Assembly (NCBI GenBank): GCA_964597775.1
Contig: CAZQZJ010000002.1
Span: 357-64,356, forward strand
Origin: an uncultured Methanosarcinales archaeon
GTDB taxonomy: Archaea > Nanobdellota > Nanobdellia > Woesearchaeales > JAGWAF01
DNA length: 64,000 nt
Direction: 5' to 3'
The position numbers and the translations under genes are program-made. Positions within the stretch are counted from its first letter, which is position 1, and every line of letters begins with the position of its first letter. This document shows positions 16,763 to 53,276 of the stretch, in pieces. The notes beneath the pieces are model-generated. The model had not been told where the DNA came from and did not search any database. It was given only the letters and a program-made list of their open reading frames with translations.

Positions 16763-17221
16763 ATTCGGTAAAAAGGAATTGTTCCTTTTTTCGGGCACGG
16801 TTGTATTATCAGAGCCGTGTCTCCCTTTCTTGGGAATCGAGGTGAGAACAGGTTCGTTTATAAATGTATGGGTGGAATTTTGACTTGTTGTTTTATTGAT
16901 CTGTACCAACTTTTTAAACAAACCATATAAGTATCTATTGATTCAGCAATGGCTTGTCTCGATCTGTATAAAGAGGCCAACCCAAAAGGCAATCTGGTGA
17001 TCAACGTCAAGCCAGCATCATTTCCATTGTAAATCTCCAACCAGGGTTGACTAAGAAGGAGATATCTAAACAGGTTGGAATTCCTTGCAAAAAATACCTT
17101 ACAACCCTTTATCAAAGAGGAGTTTTATTTGTTGAGGGTCAAGGAATAGGGTATGATGCATTCAAATAATATATAATGCGCACTATTCCATTAGATAAAT
17201 GATATCCAATTGTTTTTGGTT

Positions 17222-18643
17222 TTAATTTGTTTCAACAAGACCAAGATTATTCTTGTTTTCCTTTTGATTCACTTCTCGCTTCATGCGAATCCGCAGATGT
17301 GCATAATTAGCAGGGTTCTTAATTCTCTTACAAAGAGAATCTGGCATGCAAATGCCTAGATCTTTGTAATATGGCTGGTTGTCACAATTTGGTGGAAGTA
17401 TAGTGCCTTGTGTTTTAAAATGGTGGTTCAGGTGTCCTTTGATAATAACTTCTCTAAGCGGATCTGGGTTTTTCTTATTCCAGTTTTCAATAAGTAGTTC
17501 TATCTGTGCCTGACTCCAACCTGTTGAGCTAAGGAAATTAGTAAGAATAAAGAGTGCTCTTTTTTTACCATCTTGCATGCCTCCTAAGATGTTCATGATG
17601 CATGGTGGAAAATGTTCAAGAGGGATTGCTTCTTGTGGTGTGTCAAAAGCTTTTTTGATTCCGTCAATTCTTTCTTTATCAGGTGGAAGTTTGTAATCAA
17701 ATGCATTGACAAGTAATCGTCTTGCTTCTCCTTGTGCTACTTTAGTACGATCAAGAAATTTTTCTTTTCCAAGATTAATTGATTCTGGTGTTGCCATTGT
17801 CTTATCAAAAGTGATGATTTGAGATGGGTTAATTGGAATTGAAACCAGTCCACTTTTTTCATTAAGCGAGTATGGCATGCGGTAGAGGTGTCTAGAGGAG
17901 ATAAGGACTGTGTCAATAATAAGGACTTTGAATGGATCAAATTCTTTATTTGTCATTAGATCTTCAGGTTTTTTGTTAAGGATTCCACAGATAGTTGATA
18001 GTTGTTGAAATTCAAGAAGTGCTTGTGCAAGTGGTTCACGAATCATTTCACTAAGATATGCAGCAATACGTCTAGGTCCTTGAGGAAACAGGTGTTGTGT
18101 TGGAATGCTATTAATTTCAGATGGAAATGCCTCAAATGGTACAGCAATGTGGAATCCGTGATTTCCTGAGAATTTGATTGTTGTAGAATTAATGCCGTGA
18201 TAAATAAGGACATTATAAAGGATTTGTGCTGCAATTTGTGAATAAGAAAGGATTGGGCAGTCAATGTCTAAGATAAGATCCCAGCCAATGCGAAGGGTGT
18301 CAAGTTCTTGGCGATGCATTTGTGTGGTGAGGTACATAGGGTTTGTCCATAGTTCTTCTGAGCAATGAAATGATGTGGCGCCTTGTTGAACAAGGGTGAT
18401 CACATCGTTTGCAAATTGTAGGGTGTCTGGTCTTTTTCCATAGTTTCCATCTTTGTATCGGATTGCGATTTCCTTTCCATAGGCAAAATCTACAATTATT
18501 TTTTGTATTTCTGGTCTTTTGTAATATTTGAGAATTGTAGAGGTGCTAAGATCCATAAGCCTAGTAGTGTAGATAATCTTCTTAATTCTTGTGATAAGCA
18601 AAGGCGAGCAGTCGGTTTCAAAAGTGGCGTTCTCCTTTGTCAT
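17222..18643 (-). CDS. Fused DNA primase: PriS catalytic domain + PriL C-terminal 4-Cys (Fe-S) domain
   Basis: PriS motifs LILDIDCPI and FSGNHGFHIAV; C-terminal region with 4 spaced Cys (PPCIMN, PNCDN, GICMP, SLCKR) resembling PriL-CTD. Confidence 0.7.
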   Translation of the reverse strand: MTKENATFETDCSPLLITRIKKIIYTTRLMDLSTSTILKYYKRPEIQKIIVDFAYGKEIAIRYKDGNYGKRPDTLQFANDVITLVQQGATSFHCSEELWTNPMYLTTQMHRQELDTLRIGWDLILDIDCPILSYSQIAAQILYNVLIYHGINSTTIKFSGNHGFHIAVPFEAFPSEINSIPTQHLFPQGPRRIAAYLSEMIREPLAQALLEFQQLSTICGILNKKPEDLMTNKEFDPFKVLIIDTVLISSRHLYRMPYSLNEKSGLVSIPINPSQIITFDKTMATPESINLGKEKFLDRTKVAQGEARRLLVNAFDYKLPPDKERIDGIKKAFDTPQEAIPLEHFPPCIMNILGGMQDGKKRALFILTNFLSSTGWSQAQIELLIENWNKKNPDPLREVIIKGHLNHHFKTQGTILPPNCDNQPYYKDLGICMPDSLCKRIKNPANYAHLRIRMKREVNQKENKNNLGLVETN

Positions 18644-18646
18644 CTC

Positions 18647-18850
18647 GTACTTGTTAAGCCAGGTGTTATACAGAGGCGCTGGCGTGGGACGTCAAGATGC
18701 GAGCACTATTATGAAGTTCTACGCAAACCCGAGGAGGTTCCAGATAGGAGGGTTTCTTTGAATAGTTCTGTGAAGTGCGAGCGACGTCCCATTTTTGCGC
18801 AAGCAAAAATAAGCCAGTGCCTCTGCAATAGGTGTGGGCTTAACAAGTAC
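18647..18850 (+). ncRNA. Structured repeat element E, copy 1: 14-bp terminal helix gtacttgttaagcc/ggcttaacaagtac plus internal helices. Candidate ncRNA or MITE-like element
   Basis: Second copy at 35380-35638 with conserved core and compensatory stem change (cagaggcgctggc pairs gccagTgcctctg here and gccagCgcctctg in copy 2). Confidence 0.45.
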
Positions 18851-18867
18851 GTCATCTCCAAACCTTT

Positions 18868-33359: not shown

Positions 33360-34577
33360 CTAGGTATCATTCTCTTGTTTATCTTTAACCTTGTATATAG
33401 CAGTTGTGTCGTCATGATAAACTAGTTCAAATCCTTTAATAGTACGTAATGTGTTCATCTGATTAAGCAGTGGGTCTTCAGAGGTTTGGGCAAGTAGTTC
33501 ATAAAGAGGTATAGTGTGGATATCGCTTATTGTTACAAGTACGTATGATACATTTTTTTCTAGGAGAGTCTGTGCAGCAGTGTTTGGATCAGATGTAGTA
33601 AAAAAACTAGCAATAAGTGTTCCTGTGTGTTGAGATGATTGTGGTCCATATCTTTCTTCATCCCAGTATGGTTTATCTTGGATAGTATAGTCACCTAATG
33701 AAAACACTGTTTTATTATCTGCATCATCTGGTTGAATATTTATAGGGACTGTTGTTGCAACAACATTTCTTTTAGTTGTGGCGCGGATTATGTGTCCAAG
33801 TTCCCAATTGGTGATAAATACATCGTTTGGCAGTGTGTGTTTGGTAATCCAGGAAAATGCTTGATCAAGATCTGGTCTGCGTAGGATCCAAGAATATGTG
33901 TGTTCTTCTGTTGTATAGGATATTGTTGGAGCAAATATAAGGTCACAGGCACCAGGAAGATCGGTTTGGTAACAGCGTGTACTATCATTTGTTGTAATAC
34001 CTTGGCATATGCTTTGAAGAGAATAATTTGAAAATGCACAATCCTTAGTGTTCATCTTGTGTGTTGTTCTGCATGGATAATTTGTGGCAATACAGTCAAT
34101 GGTCCTATCAAGAAATCCATAAAGGCAAATGTCTTTGAGTTCAGGATTCTGTATAGAATTACATTGGGTAATATCATCATAAGTAAATGATAAATAAATC
34201 TTGCAATGATCACTAATACTGGTGTTGCTTATCAGGTTGCAGGTATGAGTGTCTGTCTGTTTTGATTCATGACATCCAAATCCTTGGTTGTCCTGAATGC
34301 ATGAGGCATAGTTTCTATTTCTTTGGCAAAGGTTGTTTTTTTCAATACAAGTATTGGTTTGAATTGTGTTATTGACAACCTGTTCAAACAAGCATAGCTG
34401 TTTTTGTGATTCTGTGAGATTATCACAAGAAGGTGTGGGAAATGTTAAAATAGTTTTAGAATCTTGTAGATTCCCTAATAGAATCGTTGGTTCTGATTTA
34501 GTTGCTGCTTGTTCAGATGTACATGCTGCTATAAATATGAGTAGTATACTTATTGTGATAGTAATATAATGTGGCAT
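33360..34577 (-). CDS. Secreted/lipoprotein-like Cys-rich protein, hypothetical
   Basis: Signal peptide with FIAACTS lipobox-like site; >20 Cys. Confidence 0.4.
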   Translation of the reverse strand: MPHYITITISILLIFIAACTSEQAATKSEPTILLGNLQDSKTILTFPTPSCDNLTESQKQLCLFEQVVNNTIQTNTCIEKNNLCQRNRNYASCIQDNQGFGCHESKQTDTHTCNLISNTSISDHCKIYLSFTYDDITQCNSIQNPELKDICLYGFLDRTIDCIATNYPCRTTHKMNTKDCAFSNYSLQSICQGITTNDSTRCYQTDLPGACDLIFAPTISYTTEEHTYSWILRRPDLDQAFSWITKHTLPNDVFITNWELGHIIRATTKRNVVATTVPINIQPDDADNKTVFSLGDYTIQDKPYWDEERYGPQSSQHTGTLIASFFTTSDPNTAAQTLLEKNVSYVLVTISDIHTIPLYELLAQTSEDPLLNQMNTLRTIKGFELVYHDDTTAIYKVKDKQENDT

Positions 34578-34587
34578 GGTAGGTTAT

Positions 34588-35331
34588 TTAGTCATCTTCT
34601 ACTCTTGGTGCGAGAATAAATGCAAGTAATACACGGTCAACAACCTTATAATCAAGTCTAAGAGGGTAATCTTGGTTAAAACTGATTTCGACTGTTTCAG
34701 CAAGTTTGCTGCCGTTCATCATTTTTTTGAGGTATTCAATAGAATATCTGGCACGTAATCTTTCATGTGATGTAGTAATGATTGTATCTTTTGATGCAGG
34801 AATATCAACATTTGCTTTGGATAGGTCTCCTTCAGCGCGAATAACTAGTTTGTCTGGATGTGCAGTAAAGGCAACGCTTTCAGCTACTATTCCAACATCC
34901 TCGATAGCATCATTAAGTGTGTTGCATAGCATTTTGATACTAACAGGAAGATCAAGTTGTGGCACACGTTGTTCTCTTTTATCCATTTCAATGATTGGTA
35001 CAGAGAATGTTCGTGTTGAGCTTGATGCGAGAATGATGTGAAGCATGTTATCCTCTTCTAAGGAGAGTGTAAGTTGGTCGCTTGGTTTTACCCTGCGCAG
35101 AATTTGTTTAAGATTATTAAGATCAATGCAGATTTCAGTATCCTTTTCAAGTGTGTATTCAGAGAAGCAGGATGCAAGAAGTTTAAATACAACCATGGCA
35201 ACATTGGCAGGATCCATAGCAACAAGTTCAATGCTATTTTTCGTGATTTTAAAGCGTGCTTCATTAACAAGTTCTGAGATAACTGCTATGCTATCTTTAA
35301 GATATGCTGGATCAATAAGTGTAAGTTTCAT
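34588..35331 (-). CDS. pcn: DNA polymerase sliding clamp PCNA
   Basis: 247 aa, two-domain PCNA pattern, C-terminal acidic tail. Confidence 0.9.
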   Translation of the reverse strand: MKLTLIDPAYLKDSIAVISELVNEARFKITKNSIELVAMDPANVAMVVFKLLASCFSEYTLEKDTEICIDLNNLKQILRRVKPSDQLTLSLEEDNMLHIILASSSTRTFSVPIIEMDKREQRVPQLDLPVSIKMLCNTLNDAIEDVGIVAESVAFTAHPDKLVIRAEGDLSKANVDIPASKDTIITTSHERLRARYSIEYLKKMMNGSKLAETVEISFNQDYPLRLDYKVVDRVLLAFILAPRVEDD

Positions 35332-35379
35332 GCTTATACCGCGGGATTATTAGTTATTATTTAAAATCTTCGTTCAGGT

Positions 35380-35638
35380 GTACTTGTTAAGTCTGGTGTT
35401 ATGCAGAGGCGCTGGCGTGGAACGCAACAATGTCGCATTTCTACCTTGTGCACAGCGAAAGCCGAAGGACTCGATTGTGCCAAGATGCGAGCACTATTAT
35501 GAATTTCTACGCAAACCTAAGGAGGTTCCAGATACAAGGGTTTCTTTGAATAGTTCTGTGAAGTGCGAGCGGCGTTGTGTGTTTGCGAGTGCAAAAACAA
35601 GCCAGCGCCTCTGCAATCGATGGGGGTCTAACAAGTAC
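35380..35638 (+). ncRNA. Structured repeat element E, copy 2 (with ~50-nt internal insertion relative to copy 1)
   Basis: Terminal helix gtacttgtta.../...taacaagtac, conserved 90-nt core, compensatory stem change vs copy 1. Confidence 0.45.
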
Positions 35639-35640
35639 GT

Positions 35641-37026
35641 TCAGGTGAGGCGTAGTGTTTCTCCATTATTCATTGGGTGTATTGTTTGGTCTATATGGTA
35701 TCCTAGTTCGTCACTAAGTTTGTGGAATGAATCCATCATGATATGTCCTCCATGTGAAGGGATTAGGTGTTGTGGTTTGAGGTATTTGAGAAGGTCGCGA
35801 AGATCCTCTTTGCTTGCATGTCCTGATACATGAACATCCTTAAAAATGCGTACACCAAATTTTTTAAGATCTGCTTCAAGTTCAGCTCTATTTTGTTCAT
35901 TAATTTGTGTTGGGATTACTTTGCAAGAAAAGATGATGTGGTCTTCTGTTTTAAAAGTGAATGGTAACACTCCATGTGTCATTCTGTGTAGTACAGATTT
36001 TGGTTCTCCTTGGTGGCCAGTAGCAACAATGACGTATTTGTCTCGTTTTTTATTAATTTTAGTAAGAATTTGTGCAACATGTTTTGGATATTTGACAATT
36101 TCAACAGTATCAAAATGTATAAGTCCGCAGGCTATTGCAGCTTCCACATATTTTGAAAGTGAGCGTCCAAGAAAAACAACCTTGCGATTAAGTTTTCGTG
36201 AAAATTCCACAATTGATTTAAGTCTGGCAATATGGCTTGAGAATGTGGTAACAATGATTGCCTTGCCTTTACTATTTACAGAAAGCATAACTTCTTGTAG
36301 CATTTGTCGTGCTACACTTTCTGATGGCGTTTTTCCTTCTAATGGTGCATAAAGGCATTCTGAAATAAGTAAAGCAACGCCTTTGTTTCCAATAGATTCA
36401 AGTAGTTGATATGGTGGTTTTTTGCCTATGATAGGTGTATTATCAAGTTTGAAATCATTTGCATATACAATTGCGCCGTATGGTGTGTGAAGTACAACAA
36501 GGCATGAGTGTGGGGTTGAATGTGTGATTTCTATTAATTGTATTGCAAGAGTAGTTGTGAGTTGAATAAGTTTATTCATATCAGTTACAATCAATTCATT
36601 AGGAAGATGAATATGTTCGTCAGATAATATGCGTTTTATGACTTCTAGTGTGAATGGTGATGCTATAATTGGTGCATTGTATTTAGCAGCAAGGTATGGA
36701 ATAGCTCCAATATGGTCAAGATGTGCATGAGAAGGAATAATCGCGCGTACCTGATTCTTCCAATCAGCAATAATTGAGTCATCTGGTATTGCTTGGGCAT
36801 TAATAAGTTGTTGAGTAGAGATTTTAACAAGATCCTCTTCTTCAGTAATATTGATATAGTTGGGAAGATGAATCCCCATATCAATAATGATTACATCATT
36901 ATCAATCTTAATAGCAGTCATATTTTTGCCAATTTCACCATATCCTCCAATTGCACGCACTTCAATTCCCATAGAATACTGTTGAAAAGTCAGCTTAATA
37001 ATCCTATCGTTCAAAGAAAAAATCAT
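35641..37026 (-). CDS. Archaeal RNase J-like beta-CASP metallo-beta-lactamase ribonuclease
   Basis: HxHxDH motif (PSHAHLDHIGA), beta-CASP region, ~460 aa. Confidence 0.75.
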   Translation of the reverse strand: MIFSLNDRIIKLTFQQYSMGIEVRAIGGYGEIGKNMTAIKIDNDVIIIDMGIHLPNYINITEEEDLVKISTQQLINAQAIPDDSIIADWKNQVRAIIPSHAHLDHIGAIPYLAAKYNAPIIASPFTLEVIKRILSDEHIHLPNELIVTDMNKLIQLTTTLAIQLIEITHSTPHSCLVVLHTPYGAIVYANDFKLDNTPIIGKKPPYQLLESIGNKGVALLISECLYAPLEGKTPSESVARQMLQEVMLSVNSKGKAIIVTTFSSHIARLKSIVEFSRKLNRKVVFLGRSLSKYVEAAIACGLIHFDTVEIVKYPKHVAQILTKINKKRDKYVIVATGHQGEPKSVLHRMTHGVLPFTFKTEDHIIFSCKVIPTQINEQNRAELEADLKKFGVRIFKDVHVSGHASKEDLRDLLKYLKPQHLIPSHGGHIMMDSFHKLSDELGYHIDQTIHPMNNGETLRLT

Positions 37027-37079: not shown

Positions 37080-40067
37080 TTAAGCAATTTTAACATATTG
37101 TTTGTTTACAAAAGCTGTGTCACTTCCATATCGTATTTGATACCAATCTCCAGATTCACCTACAATAGAAACTTGTGTATCACGGTTCAATGCGCCAATT
37201 CTATTGTTCCCTATCTTAGCTGAACTTCTCACATTCAGTCTACCACCTTGTGTTGTAACTACACCTAAATAAGGTGTCAAAACTGGAAGATTAATATGCT
37301 CTGTTTGGGATTGTGATGCCAATTCTTCCTTTTCAGCTTGTTTTGTGTTTGGAAACCATCTTCGTATTTGATATTCACCATTCCTAATGCCTTGGTTTAG
37401 TTTTGCAGTGCTGATAAGGTTGGTATATCTTCTGGGTACAATGGCAGGATCTGAGCCTGCAAATCTATCAACAAATCTTTTTCCATTAATCTCAATGACT
37501 CCCAAAACACCTTCTGTATGGCCATATCCTTGTTTATTAGGCTTTTTTAGTATGACATCTCCAGATTGAATATCCTCTGCATTTTTGATAAGTGGAAGAT
37601 CTCGGGATGACATCTTCCACAGAGAGCCTGTTGCAAAAGACGCATAAGTTCCTCTTAAATATTCTGTGAAATCCTCTTCAGAGTTTGGTGTCCAGGTAGG
37701 TTTGTATCCTGGAAGTGCTATCTTATCTCTTCCTCCTTTTTTTATCTCTGATTTTTGGAACTCAGTATAACATCTTATCTGAACATCTGAACAGGTTTCA
37801 CTTCCTGAAATAATAGTATAGGCATTATTATCAAATCCTCCGATATTGTATTGTGTTCCCTCTCCAGGGTTGTAAAGTGGGATATCAAACCTTCTTCCGC
37901 TTACAGTGTTTGAGAGTTCAGATGAATGTATTTGTAATGCTGTTTCATATGGTTGCGTTTTGACTCCTGGAACCCTGTGAAGACCAAGGTTTTCTATATA
38001 ATTTGCAAAGGCATTTGTTCCCTGTGGTGTTGTTATTCTTTCTCCGAAATATCCTACTACGTTCTGGCCTGCATCTAACATAAGCAGCTCTCCAGCATTG
38101 TTTATTTCATTCTCAAGAATTTCTAATTCACTTCTCAATCGTACAGCTGGGTGTTGCTGTTTCAAATTCCCAATTTGATTTTCTGTTATTCTTATTTGTT
38201 GGTCTAAATCTTCAACTTTTTTTCGAAAAGTGGTTTCTCTTTGTTGAATTTGACGATTGTTTTCTGATGTTTGAGTCAAGACACTTCTTGCTCTCTCTAA
38301 TTCCTTTTCTGCTTTTTCTTTTGATTTTTTAAGATCCTTTAATATACTGAGTTGTTGTTCATAATTTGTTAGATAAGAGGATAATTGACGGTCAGTAGAA
38401 GTCATATGTGAAATCTGGGCTCTTTTTTGTTGTACAAGCTCTGTTTTCTGTGCTATTTGAGAACGTAGTTCTGAGATTTTCTCAGCAGGAATTCTAGAGT
38501 CATAGAATATATTTGTATTATATTCATATTTTCTGGTTTTTCCATCATCTGTTTTGTAGTCAAGCATCATGTCTGTGCCAGCGTATGTTGGAAGAGTTCC
38601 AAATATCTTAGAAAGCAAAGATGGGGTTTTGAAAGGAGTGAGCAGAATCTCTTTACCATTGGTCACAGTTTCCCAATTACCATTTTTTATCCTCAATCTA
38701 CCTTCTGCTGTAGCATGTATTGTTTGGGGTGTTCCTTCTTCTGACCCAGGTTCAAGTATGACTTTTCCTCCTTCAAGATTAATAGATAATCTTGTAGGAA
38801 TGTTTTCTTCAGGACGATCAGGTGATAATTGGTGCATATCTTTAAATCCAGAAAATACTAAATTTCTTTGTTTAAGTTCTGATGTAAAACCTGTTCCAGA
38901 GGCGATAACAATGTCAGAACCCTGCATGAAATAGTTTGCATGTACAGGTAGGTGTTGTTGTGAGATAAATGAGTGGTATATTTCATTCCTTTCTGATCTA
39001 TATCTTCTCTGAATTTCTGCAATCTTATCACGAAGGAAAAACTCATTATCCCTTAACCTTGAAGCTTTCTCCAACAAATCTCTCGCTTCTATTTTAAGAT
39101 CTGATTCCTTAGCTGGATTAAGCTCTCTTTCCATTTCCTGTTCTTTCTCTTTAGCTTGTGTTATCATTTGTGAAGCTTGTTCTCTATTTTTTTTTGCCTT
39201 TGTGTACTGGAGTAACAGCGGTTCTAATATTTCTTTTTCTCTTTGCACAGAAGCCATTATCTGATTATTAGAGATATATCTAATATAAAGTGGATTATCT
39301 GTTGTTGTGTGATGCCAATAACTTACCAATGCATCAGAGTATGGGTCAAGTAGTGTGGGAATTCCTTGTGTAAATCGAATTGATCCCTTGTTGAGGATAT
39401 CTCCTTTTGGAAGATTTATCCTCTCCCCTTTGATAGTGATATCTCTATCAATCTTTGAAATTGTTGTGTCGCTGACAAGTAAGACATTTTCTGTTCTATC
39501 ATAATGAGCTTCTGTTGGTTTATCAAAAGTCACTCCATTGATGGAAGTAAATATTCCATAGATTTTCCCATTCTCAAAAGATAATTCTGTTCCACGTATC
39601 AGAACTCCGTCAATTGATGTTTCTTTATTTTCATCTGCAAAAAGTTCAAATCCAGAACTAGTAGATATCAATTCTCCAGAAAACGAATGGGGATTGTTAT
39701 TATTATCTATAATGTGGAGGTGTCCTGATTCGTCTATTTTAAAAGAAAAGAGGTGTTTTGTATCATAGATGTTAATACGATATTTATCTGATGTGATCCA
39801 TCCCCGTGTATCGAATCTAAAGTCAAACTGTGCATTGCCTGATTGGGATATTTTGACACCTTCTTCGTTAAGCATCTTGATAAATATGTCATTATGTTCA
39901 TTCATATGTTGTGGGTCTTTTGCAAAGAATTTCTTTAAAGCTTCTCTATGATTTTCATTGGTATAATCAATTTCATTCAGATTAAGCTCGATAGATTCTT
40001 CTTGTGCCTGGACTATTCTAAGGAGGAGGATAATCACTAAAATTGTGACAAAGCTACCTTGTTTCAT
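37080..40067 (-). CDS. Large secreted protein: signal peptide, two coiled-coil regions, NlpC/P60-like papain-fold domain, C-terminal SH3b domain
   Basis: SH3b signature (RLNVRSSAKIGNNRIGALNRDTQVSIVGESGDWYQIRYGSDTAFV); Cys...GDVIL...GHTEGVLGV pattern. Confidence 0.6.
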   Translation of the reverse strand: MKQGSFVTILVIILLLRIVQAQEESIELNLNEIDYTNENHREALKKFFAKDPQHMNEHNDIFIKMLNEEGVKISQSGNAQFDFRFDTRGWITSDKYRINIYDTKHLFSFKIDESGHLHIIDNNNNPHSFSGELISTSSGFELFADENKETSIDGVLIRGTELSFENGKIYGIFTSINGVTFDKPTEAHYDRTENVLLVSDTTISKIDRDITIKGERINLPKGDILNKGSIRFTQGIPTLLDPYSDALVSYWHHTTTDNPLYIRYISNNQIMASVQREKEILEPLLLQYTKAKKNREQASQMITQAKEKEQEMERELNPAKESDLKIEARDLLEKASRLRDNEFFLRDKIAEIQRRYRSERNEIYHSFISQQHLPVHANYFMQGSDIVIASGTGFTSELKQRNLVFSGFKDMHQLSPDRPEENIPTRLSINLEGGKVILEPGSEEGTPQTIHATAEGRLRIKNGNWETVTNGKEILLTPFKTPSLLSKIFGTLPTYAGTDMMLDYKTDDGKTRKYEYNTNIFYDSRIPAEKISELRSQIAQKTELVQQKRAQISHMTSTDRQLSSYLTNYEQQLSILKDLKKSKEKAEKELERARSVLTQTSENNRQIQQRETTFRKKVEDLDQQIRITENQIGNLKQQHPAVRLRSELEILENEINNAGELLMLDAGQNVVGYFGERITTPQGTNAFANYIENLGLHRVPGVKTQPYETALQIHSSELSNTVSGRRFDIPLYNPGEGTQYNIGGFDNNAYTIISGSETCSDVQIRCYTEFQKSEIKKGGRDKIALPGYKPTWTPNSEEDFTEYLRGTYASFATGSLWKMSSRDLPLIKNAEDIQSGDVILKKPNKQGYGHTEGVLGVIEINGKRFVDRFAGSDPAIVPRRYTNLISTAKLNQGIRNGEYQIRRWFPNTKQAEKEELASQSQTEHINLPVLTPYLGVVTTQGGRLNVRSSAKIGNNRIGALNRDTQVSIVGESGDWYQIRYGSDTAFVNKQYVKIA

Positions 40068-43166: not shown

Positions 43167-43430
43167 TCTTTGAATCAACGATAAGTATGTGATAAATATG
43201 TGGTCCTAATATAGTTTAATATTTCAATTACCTTTCCAGGATTTCCTCTTCCAACAGGGAAATAACAAGGAATTACAAGGTATTCCATCCCAAAAATAGG
43301 TTTGCGTTAAAAATATCTTCCAAATCTCTTTTGTTCCAACAAATGGGAATCTTACTCAGTTATATTCTAGAGATGAGGTGGTTAAATCACTCATTAAACC
43401 CTCTAAGTGTAACTTATTCAATAGGTTTAG

Positions 43431-43514
43431 TGCAAGGAGCAGGATTCGAACCTGCGAACGCACTAAGCGAACAGCTCTTGAGGCTGCCCCGTTTGACCAC
43501 TCCGGAATCCTTGC
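43431..43514 (-). tRNA. tRNA-Leu (anticodon CAA), class II with long variable arm
   Basis: Hand-folded: acceptor GCAAGGA/UCCUUGC, anticodon loop CUCAAGA, 15-nt variable arm, T-arm GCAGGUUCGAAUCCUGC; CCA not encoded. Confidence 0.85.
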
Positions 43515-46773: not shown

Positions 46774-49239
46774 ATGGCACAAACACAGTCAGAAAACAGG
46801 GTTGTTGCACGTCTTATTGAAGAGGAGATGCAGGTCTCTTATCTCAATTATTCAATGAGTGTGATTGTAGGTAGAGCTCTGCCTGATGTGCGTGACGGTC
46901 TCAAGCCTGTTCATCGTCGGGTCTTGTATACTATGTTTGAAACAGGCTTGTTGCATAATAAACAAACTAAGAAATCAGCCAATGTTGTAGGTAATTGTAT
47001 GGCAAGGTATCATCCGCATGGTGATACTGCGATTTATGATACCTTAGTTCGTCTTGCTCAAGACTTTTCAATGAGATATCCACTTATTATTGGTCAAGGA
47101 AACTTTGGTTCAATTGATGGCGACGCAGCTGCTGCCATGAGATATACTGAAGCAAAATTACATGCTCTTGCTGAAGAACTTATTGAAGATATTGATAAAG
47201 AAACAGTTTTGTTTACACCTAATTTTGATGGGTCAGCAAAGGAACCAACAGTGTTTCCTTCAAAGGTTCCTAATCTTCTTGTTAATGGTTCATCAGGTAT
47301 TGCTGTAGGTATGGCTACAAATATGCCGCCGCATAATCTCAAAGAGGTTTGTGCAGCTATCATAAAGCGAATTGAGAATCCGAATAACACGATACAGGAG
47401 TTGATGGATATCATTATTGCACCAGATTTTCCTACTGGTGGAATTATCTGTAGCAGAGCAGGAATTATAGAAGCATACAATACTGGTAAAGGTAAATTAT
47501 TATTACGAGCAAAAACACATGCTGAAGAAGTTAAAAATAATCGTCAGGATCTGATTGTTGATGAAATACCCTATCAAGTAAACAAGACGCAGCTTATTGA
47601 AGATATCGCTGTACTGGTTCGGGATAAGGTAGTGCAAGGTATTACTGACATACGTGATGAATCAGATCGTGATGGAATGCGTATTGTTTTCGAATTAAAA
47701 AATGGTGCTAATCCTGACGTTGTGCTCAACCAGCTATTTAAGCATTCGCGGTTGCAAACAACCTTTGGTATTATCAATTTGGCTTTGGTTGATAATCAGC
47801 CAAAAATACTGAGCCTACCCCAATTATTAGATTATCATATTGAGCATCGTGTGGCAATCGTCAGAAAACGTTCTGAATTTGGTCTTGTAAAAGCAAAGGA
47901 ACGTCTCCACATCCTTAACGGTTTTATTGTGGCATTAGATGATATCGACAGCGTGGTAAAAATAATTAAGGCAGCAAAGAGTCCGCAACAAGCTGCTCAG
48001 TATCTTATGGAACAATTTAGGTTAAGTGAGATCCAAGCCCAATCCATTCTTGATATGAAATTGCAGCGTATTACAAGTTTAGAACAAGATAAGATTCGTG
48101 AGGAGCAAAAAAATGTTACTATAAGAATCAGCGAGTTAGAGATTCTGCTTTCTTCTCGCAAGAATATTCTTGATGTTATCTGTATTGAGGTTGTGGATTT
48201 GGCACAGCGATTTGGTGATGCTAGAAAAACTCAGGTAATTGAGAGCGAAGGCGATCTTGAGGTTGAAGATCTTATAAAACCTGAGGATGTTGTTGTTACA
48301 TTTACTCATTCAGGATATGTTAAGCGCTTGCCTATTGATACGTATAAACAGCAGCGTCGTGGTGGGAGAGGGGTCATTGCTGCTGAAGCAACAGAAGAGG
48401 ACTTCTTAGATCATCTTTTTGTAGCAAATACGCATTCCTGGTTGCTTGTCTTTACTGATACAGGTAAAGTTCATTGGTTAAAGGTGTATCAGATTCCAGC
48501 TGCATCCAGAACAGCGCGGGGTACATCAATTGTAAACCTGGTTGAAATGCAATCTGCTGAAAAGGTAACTGCAGTGCTTCCAGTCAAAACATTTAGTGAT
48601 GAGCAGCTTGTCTTTTTAGGAACACAGGATGGAACAGTCAAGAAATTATCGCTTAGCCATTTTTCAAATCCTCGTCGTGGTGGTATTGTTGCAATGAAAC
48701 TCGAGGATGGTGATCGTTTAGTTAATGCCCTAATTACCAATGGAGATAAGGATATTATTGTTGGTACAAAAAAAGGTCTTGCGATCAGGTTCCACGAATC
48801 TAATGTTCGAGAGATGGGAAGAACTGCAATTGGTGTAAGGGGTGTTAAACTAAGGCAAACTGATGCAGTTATTGGGGTAGAAATTGCAGATAATGCAAAA
48901 TATCTTCTTACTATTTCAAGAAATGGAATTGGGAAGAAAACACAGATGGGAGAGTATAATCGCACTAATAGGGGTGGCATTGGTGTAATTAATATGAAAG
49001 TCACTGATAAGTCAGGTGAAGTTGTAGCTGTTCTGTCTGTGGATGATGAGGATGAAATCATGTTTATCTCAAAGATGGGGATTGCTATTAGGATTCCAGT
49101 TTCTGGAGTATCAAGTATTGGCAGAAACACCCAAGGTGTAAGAGTGATGAAGCTTGAAAATAATGATGAGGTTGTTGCTGCTGCAAAGATTGCAAAGAGC
49201 AAGGCTAATGGTTCTGATGAAAGCAATAGCAGTCTGTAA
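46774..49239 (+). CDS. gyrA: DNA gyrase subunit A
   Basis: HPHGD, active-site AAMRYTEAKL, GyrA-box-like region and C-terminal beta-pinwheel repeats; 821 aa. Confidence 0.9.
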   Translation: MAQTQSENRVVARLIEEEMQVSYLNYSMSVIVGRALPDVRDGLKPVHRRVLYTMFETGLLHNKQTKKSANVVGNCMARYHPHGDTAIYDTLVRLAQDFSMRYPLIIGQGNFGSIDGDAAAAMRYTEAKLHALAEELIEDIDKETVLFTPNFDGSAKEPTVFPSKVPNLLVNGSSGIAVGMATNMPPHNLKEVCAAIIKRIENPNNTIQELMDIIIAPDFPTGGIICSRAGIIEAYNTGKGKLLLRAKTHAEEVKNNRQDLIVDEIPYQVNKTQLIEDIAVLVRDKVVQGITDIRDESDRDGMRIVFELKNGANPDVVLNQLFKHSRLQTTFGIINLALVDNQPKILSLPQLLDYHIEHRVAIVRKRSEFGLVKAKERLHILNGFIVALDDIDSVVKIIKAAKSPQQAAQYLMEQFRLSEIQAQSILDMKLQRITSLEQDKIREEQKNVTIRISELEILLSSRKNILDVICIEVVDLAQRFGDARKTQVIESEGDLEVEDLIKPEDVVVTFTHSGYVKRLPIDTYKQQRRGGRGVIAAEATEEDFLDHLFVANTHSWLLVFTDTGKVHWLKVYQIPAASRTARGTSIVNLVEMQSAEKVTAVLPVKTFSDEQLVFLGTQDGTVKKLSLSHFSNPRRGGIVAMKLEDGDRLVNALITNGDKDIIVGTKKGLAIRFHESNVREMGRTAIGVRGVKLRQTDAVIGVEIADNAKYLLTISRNGIGKKTQMGEYNRTNRGGIGVINMKVTDKSGEVVAVLSVDDEDEIMFISKMGIAIRIPVSGVSSIGRNTQGVRVMKLENNDEVVAAAKIAKSKANGSDESNSSL

Positions 49240-50412: not shown

Positions 50413-50439
50413 TGATCTAACTCTTACTGTCTTATCCAG

Positions 50440-50800
50440 GGTGCAGACGAAGCCAACGGTAACATCATATTGTTTGGTGTCTCTGAGGAAAGTCTGCCCA
50501 CATCCAGGATCTTTAGTTCAAATCTAAAGATTCTGCAGACAAGCGGTACCTATCCAAACAATAGGATCCAGTAATGGATGGCAACATCACCGAAACGACA
50601 CGGCCATATGCAGATGAGAATGACGCAGTGAAGTCCTTGGTAACAGGGATGAGTTAACCTGTAGAATGATGCATAATGGATGCGATGAAACGGATAGCCC
50701 TATCGTGTGCAAGGCAAACAAGATGCAAGTAGTTCATAAAAACATGTCTGCGTGCTCTTCACATGCCGCTTAGTTGAATGCTTCGGCAGATCATCGGAAG
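50440..50800 (+). ncRNA. rnpB: Candidate RNase P RNA
   Basis: Non-coding 480-bp gap with TATA; CR-I-like GAGGAAAGUCUGCCC at 50485-50499; distal GGCAGAU (50785-50791) can pair with GUCUGCC to form a P4-like helix. Confidence 0.35.
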
Positions 50801-50877
50801 GATGTTATAATCTTTCTTTGGGTCTGACAAAAGGCAGCTTATATGCGCCCTGGATCTTTTTTAAGGTGAGGAAGAGT

Positions 50878-53193: not shown

Positions 53194-53265
53194 GGCGGCT
53201 GTAGTATAATGGTAGTATTCGGGACTGTGGATCCCGAGAACCGGGTTCGATCCCCGGCAGTCGCC
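53194..53265 (+). tRNA. tRNA-His (anticodon GUG) with genome-encoded G-1 pairing C73
   Basis: Hand-folded: G-1 + GCGGCUG/CAGUCGC acceptor, anticodon loop CUGUGGA, T-arm CCGGGUUCGAUCCCCGG, followed by T7. Confidence 0.85.
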
Positions 53266-53276
53266 TTTTTTTAGGG

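Follow-up and report, generated by a model that had tools for sequence, protein, structure and literature searches.

The closest known counterparts of the element described here are the prokaryotic MITEs, non-autonomous cut-and-paste DNA transposons represented, for example, by the SM elements of Sulfolobus, the MITEs of halophiles and those of the MITE-Tracker census, which includes DPANN and Woesearchaeal genomes (PMC11602168, PMC10969869). Prokaryotic MITEs are recognised by a size of 50-800 bp, terminal inverted repeats (TIRs) of at least 10-15 bp and target-site duplications (TSDs) of 2-10 bp (PMC11602168); TIRs and TSDs together with a lack of coding capacity make a textbook MITE (PMC11602168, PMC10969869). 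They are usually described as AT-rich (PMC10969869). MITEs have been catalogued in the DPANN archaea as well, including a Woesearchaeal genome that is dense in them (PMC11602168). The Correia elements of Neisseria and the ERIC/IRU-type MITEs of enterobacteria form hairpins just upstream of genes; they are present in hundreds of copies, and their effect on neighbouring genes has been shown experimentally.

We analysed a 64-kb stretch of DNA (the window) from a Woesearchaeota/Nanoarchaeota (DPANN) genome. Two copies of a structured repeat in equal orientation had been described here by the initial annotation, and both were found where it had placed them (Table 1). We consider it very likely that this repeat is a MITE, because it ends in 14-bp terminal repeats, is flanked by 8-bp duplications that are distinct for each copy, has no coding capacity and is situated between genes. 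The element agrees with the MITE definition in every point tested. With 204 and 259 nt both copies lie within the size range; the TSDs are perfect over 8 bp and different at each insertion; neither copy holds a transposase gene or other coding capacity; and in a related species the orthologous RNase J-PCNA junction is without the element. As to dispersal in the genome, the two copies seen both lie within these 64 kb. Further features in common with prokaryotic MITEs are the TIR of at least 10 bp, the intergenic position, the long stable stem-loop and the occurrence of size variants that probably go back to internal deletion. Unlike other prokaryotic MITEs, it belongs to a sequence family that none of the collections searched contained elsewhere, and only two copies are seen. 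It also differs from the usual AT-rich MITEs (PMC10969869) in being G+C-rich relative to its host (48.5% G+C versus 37.5% in the window). The element is a new sequence family of an already known kind.

Table 1. Position of the two copies of the putative MITE, their repeats and the adjoining genes in the window
Feature	Position	Strand	Remarks
Putative MITE, copy 1 (short form, 204 nt)	18647-18850		between P-type ATPase and PriS-PriL primase genes
Left TSD, copy 1	18639-18646		GTCATCTC; holds the spurious primase ATG at 18643
Right TSD, copy 1	18851-18858		GTCATCTC
Left TIR, copy 1	18647-18660	+	GTACTTGTTAAGCC
Right TIR, copy 1	18837-18850	-	14/14 versus left
Left subterminal inverted repeat, copy 1	18671-18683	+	CAGAGGCGCTGGC; partner 18813-18825
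Right subterminal inverted repeat, copy 1	18813-18825	-	reads GCCAGTGCCTCTG on + strand
Putative MITE, copy 2 (long form, 259 nt)	35380-35638		between RNase J-like stop codon and PCNA TATA-like box/start
Left TSD, copy 2	35372-35379		GTTCAGGT
Right TSD, copy 2	35639-35646		GTTCAGGT; holds last sense codon and TGA (35643-35641, -) of RNase J-like gene
Left TIR, copy 2	35380-35393	+	GTACTTGTTAAGTC
Right TIR, copy 2	35625-35638	-	GTACTTGTTAGACC; 11/14 versus left, first 10 perfect
Left subterminal inverted repeat, copy 2	35404-35416	+	partner 35601-35613
Right subterminal inverted repeat, copy 2	35601-35613	-	reads GCCAGCGCCTCTG on + strand
Internal 55-nt segment	35424-35478		copy 2 only; own small hairpin and pairing with 3' arm
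Fused PriS-PriL primase gene	ORF 17222-18643	-	homologue-supported ATG 18556 (Met30)
P-type ATPase gene	ATG 18895	+	divergent from primase
PCNA gene	34588-35331	-	
RNase J-like beta-CASP gene	35641-37026	-	ends ACC TGA within duplicated octamer

The decisive feature is found at the ends. A direct repeat of 8 bp, perfect in both cases, flanks each copy on its two sides; the empirical chance of such a flanking 8-mer match in this window is ~3e-5 to 3.5e-5 per site. Since the two octamers differ between the copies, they are part of the targets and not of the element. The initial annotation had overlooked these repeats at both copies. It had listed a TIR-bounded MITE among its candidates and had named flanking target-site duplications as the observation that would speak against a replication-linked or RNA function; the presence of such duplications at both copies bears out the former candidate and speaks against the latter readings.

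A common 14-bp terminal helix had also been claimed. This helix is perfect in copy 1, whereas in copy 2 only 11 of 14 positions pair, among them the first 10 without interruption. In each copy a 13-bp subterminal inverted repeat is situated 10-11 bp inward of the terminal repeat; this is the second helix described before, CAGAGGCGCTGGC / GCCAG(T/C)GCCTCTG, and it is indeed present in both copies. The third helix, GGGACGTC (18686-18693) / GACGTCCC (18783-18790), was likewise found in copy 1. Copy 2 had been reported to carry an insertion of about 50 nt that preserves the helices. The segment exists and comprises 55 nt, but the third helix is kept only partly.

Outside this segment the two copies are 87% identical, with 26 substitutions in 204 aligned positions, 17 of which are transitions. 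A 23-nt core word occurs twice, compared with 0.01 occurrences expected by chance. The 55-nt segment completes the pairing of the 3' arm in copy 2. It was probably lost from copy 1, which would make copy 1 an internal-deletion derivative of a form resembling copy 2. The copies diverge by 13% although their duplications are intact, and they may therefore derive from separate source copies. Statistically this is weak, as under equal drift the absence of any mismatch in the 16 duplicated positions has an estimated P of about 0.11.

Open reading frames run through both copies. They match no Pfam family, and a six-frame peptide search for gene calls on other copies gave no matches. Owing to the 55-nt indel the copies are read in different frames, and no frame is common to both. 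The earlier opinion that the element is unlikely to code for protein thus holds, and the unshared frame and the lack of family matches rule out a protein-coding reading.

The window matches a Nanoarchaeota/Woesearchaeota metagenome-assembled genome from Hainich groundwater well H51 (GCA_038044785.1; ENA Hain_H51_02um assemblies), and the same copy 1 sequence is present in GCA_038044785.1 and in ENA ERZ1292641. In the window and in all fetched loci, blastn with a word size of 7, nhmmer --max and a covariance model derived from the pair picked up nothing beyond the two copies and the palindromic reverse strand of each. Neither a further copy nor a full-length relative was found in species-representative genomes, JGI metagenomes, viral contigs, plasmids or phages. 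The end pattern GTACTTGTTA N14-15 CAGAGGCRCTGGC had 0 matches in genome and metagenome contigs, 20-23-mers of the core gave no matches in metagenome or viral contigs, and blastn against plasmids and phages gave no match. A relaxed version of the end pattern was found once in bacteria and twice in viral sequences. None of these similarities extended beyond the pattern itself, and we regard them as chance matches. A partner transposase was not found among the 30 window ORFs scanned with Pfam and NCBIfam.

Nine independent, shorter short-read contigs with the flanking genes break off within the element without exception. Assemblers typically stop in this way at repeats, and two copies alone suffice for it. 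One Logan contig (its positions 1-54 compared with window positions 35485-35535) follows copy 2 but, near its end, has the CTCGGG of copy 1 instead of CTTAGG; it is either an assembly chimera of both copies or a real population variant.

We then considered the insertion sites. According to the initial annotation copy 1 begins four nucleotides from the start codon of the primase gene. This start codon is spurious. As drawn, the ORF of the primase is 29 codons too long (18557-18643, - strand), and the protein accordingly has 473 aa in GCA_038044785.1 and 444 aa elsewhere. Nine homologues, including a 444-aa gene call for the identical protein, support Met30, that is ATG 18556, as the start: eight begin within 1-2 residues of Met30, and two have short unconserved N-terminal extensions. 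The apparent gap of 3 nt between primase and element is an artefact, because ATG 18643 lies within the duplicated octamer. As the homologues start at Met30, copy 1 is situated 90 nt upstream of the real primase start.

A box, AATTAAGA, was identified 24-31 nt upstream of ATG 18556, and in a primase orthologue with 70% identity ATTAATAC is found at the corresponding position. The upstream spacer of this orthologue comprises 130 nt and lacks the element. When the element and one duplicate are subtracted, the spacer between the primase and ATPase genes in the window is reconstructed as 126 nt. At the second site, the same subtraction leaves 42 nt from the RNase J stop codon to the PCNA ATG; both spacers are compact once restored. 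The PCNA ATG (35331) is preceded at a distance of 26-35 nt by a TATA-like box, TTTTAAATAA (35357-35366). GCA_964359785.1, a related species whose PCNA is 77% identical and the closest relative reachable, has RNase J and PCNA in the same order, separated by 58 nt that do not contain the element; the empty site is from a different species. An empty allele was not found in the same population, where every contig with the flanking genes either contains the element or ends inside it. At both sites the adjoining coding sequences with their start codons, and the likely promoters (TATA-like boxes), seem to have stayed intact, as is expected of the few surviving insertions in a gene-dense genome.

The surroundings of the two sites contain some further features. 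The primase stop codon and the ribosomal protein L3 operon are about 300-460 nt apart (16763-17221), the exact distance varying with the true L3 start. Such a spacer is unusually long in this compact genome; the one ORF within it (16858-17115, 85 aa) matches no Pfam family, and one relative carries a VapBC toxin-antitoxin pair at this position. PCNA is adjoined by a gene for a 405-aa protein (33360-34577, - strand) with no match in Pfam or NCBIfam; in one relative a 398-aa gene, also without a Pfam match, is found in the same place. Directly upstream of the RNase J-like gene a 995-aa protein is encoded (37080-40067, - strand). A C-terminal bacterial SH3 domain is its sole recognisable domain, and it may be a large surface or attachment protein. 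Elsewhere the window contains a full-length DNA gyrase subunit A gene (46774-49239, + strand; Pfam DNA_topoisoIV and six GyrA C-terminal repeats) and an archaeal RNase P RNA (50439-50850, + strand; Rfam RF00373, 96.7 bits) which, with 412 nt against the 288 positions of the model, has several large insertions. Neither of the two tRNA genes, tRNA-Leu(CAA) at 43430-43514 (-) and tRNA-His(GTG) at 53194-53266 (+), adjoins a copy of the element.

The element folds into a very stable structure on either strand. For copy 1 the folding energies are -92.3 kcal/mol (z = -8.2 compared with shuffled sequences) on the + strand and -85.3 kcal/mol (z = -9.0) on the - strand; for copy 2 they are -99.9 kcal/mol (z = -4.9) and -89.9 kcal/mol (z = -5.9), respectively. 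The + strand is hence more stable by 7-10 kcal/mol, a gap for which a few G-U pairs account. The candidacy as a novel family of noncoding RNA had been linked to a G-U to G-C compensatory difference in the second helix. This difference is a one-sided T/C change and not a double change.

To score the changed pairs, copy 2 was projected onto the minimum-energy structure of copy 1, so that the counts come from two sequences only. On the + strand a change on one side preserves 6 pairs, changes on both sides preserve 2, and 7 pairs are broken; on the - strand these classes comprise 3, 3 and 7 pairs. When the observed substitutions were re-placed at random, broken pairs proved to be somewhat fewer than expected (P = 0.045 for the + and 0.010 for the - strand), and double-compensated pairs somewhat more frequent (P = 0.12 and 0.013, respectively). 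This points weakly, on both strands and in two sequences only, to complementarity being maintained between the arms. It fits the recognition of both arms by one transposase, or descent from two different master copies. The complementarity gives no indication of a strand-specific RNA: because the compensated pairs are Watson-Crick pairs on both strands, and because both strands fold comparably, the element resembles a palindrome at the DNA level. Some selection may have acted on the fold, given that compensated pairs are in mild excess (P about 0.01-0.1). A search of Rfam returned no match at the gathering thresholds and nothing credible at E <= 10. With a one-sided change in the second helix, equal folding of the strands, about half of the changed pairs broken and no Rfam match, the proposal of a novel noncoding RNA family finds no support.

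The alternative that survives best accepts the MITE but has it co-opted, the hairpin acting either as a stable small RNA or in cis on the promoters of primase and PCNA, for instance by binding a protein upstream of them or by insulating them, and thereby coupling the expression of the two genes. Taking both forms together we consider this improbable. Both copies are situated upstream of replication genes on the - strand and in equal orientation; with two copies only, however, equal orientation has a chance of 0.5, and each copy also borders a gene outside replication (P-type ATPase and RNase J, respectively). The link to replication genes rests on these two insertions, and one of the distances came from the spurious start codon. 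The greater stability of the + strand through G-U pairs would suit an RNA, but the z-scores give this strand no advantage. Likewise, the mild excess of compensated pairs and the deficit of broken ones would agree with a conserved fold, but these compensated changes give Watson-Crick pairs whichever strand is read, and it is the - strand that shows the signal, if anything, more strongly. The high G+C content relative to the host and the documented regulatory and small-RNA roles of some bacterial MITEs (PMC10969869) favour co-option; against it stand the relatives that have the same genes without the element, the lack of an Rfam family match and, on inspection of the sequence, the absence of a conserved TATA-like box common to both copies. 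As with the Correia and ERIC/IRU-type elements, promoters, terminators or processing sites might conceivably be present in the element. The effects of those elements have been demonstrated by experiment; in the present one no outward promoter is conserved between the two copies. A MITE domesticated in this lineage, whose hairpin serves as a shared cis-regulatory structure or small RNA in front of PriS-PriL and PCNA, likewise seems improbable to us. If this were true, a reduced DPANN genome would have gained a way to co-regulate its replication genes.

We regard it as very improbable that the repeat is another kind of small mobile element, be it a palindromic element of the IS200/IS605 type (Y1/HUH) or the remnant ends of a larger integrated element. 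The long hairpin-forming sequence and the lack of a transposase among the window ORFs scanned would be in line with both. The element has, however, terminal inverted repeats as well as 8-bp duplications, which speak against an IS200/IS605-derived palindrome; to our knowledge elements of that type have neither. Since each copy is complete and its ends match, the copies are not fragments.

A structured origin-associated element with initiator-binding repeats beside replication genes, also among the original candidates, is ruled out for practical purposes: the copies do adjoin the primase and PCNA genes, and their core word TTCCAG presumably recalls archaeal ORB boxes, if faintly, but the target-site duplications mark both copies as insertions, the cumulative GC skew keeps rising monotonically across the two sites and does not turn, no Orc1/Cdc6 was found among the 30 window ORFs scanned, and the orthologous loci of relatives lack the element.

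For the MITE, the following course of events can be proposed. A DDE-type transposase encoded elsewhere would bind the 14-bp terminal and the 13-bp subterminal repeats and cut the target with a stagger of 8 bp, and repair would then yield the duplication. The long hairpin would represent the extended inverted-repeat architecture of the element, and the two arms would stay alike because one transposase has to recognise both. That the copies are found beside primase and PCNA may be a matter of survivorship, as only promoter-proximal spacers would tolerate 200-260 bp in a gene-dense genome.

Duplications of 8 bp are made by the IS6, IS256, IS1595 and IS66/ISBst12 families and by the archaeal ISM1 and ISA1214 groups, which may give a lead to the parent family. 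The element resembles these in combining an 8-bp duplication with terminal inverted repeats; unlike them, it is not accompanied by a transposase gene with these ends in the window ORFs and collections scanned. The GTA with which the repeat starts recalls, as far as we may assume, the GTAA ends of IS66.

Identified as a MITE, the element reveals neither a new RNA nor a new mechanism of replication control. It accounts for the breaks of short-read assemblies at both loci in this population, and the ATG inside the duplicated target explains the spurious 29-residue N-terminal extension of the primase in one annotation. For the organism it means that a small DPANN genome densely packed with genes has had at least one active family of cut-and-paste transposons, whose insertions persist only a few bases away from promoters and the ends of genes.
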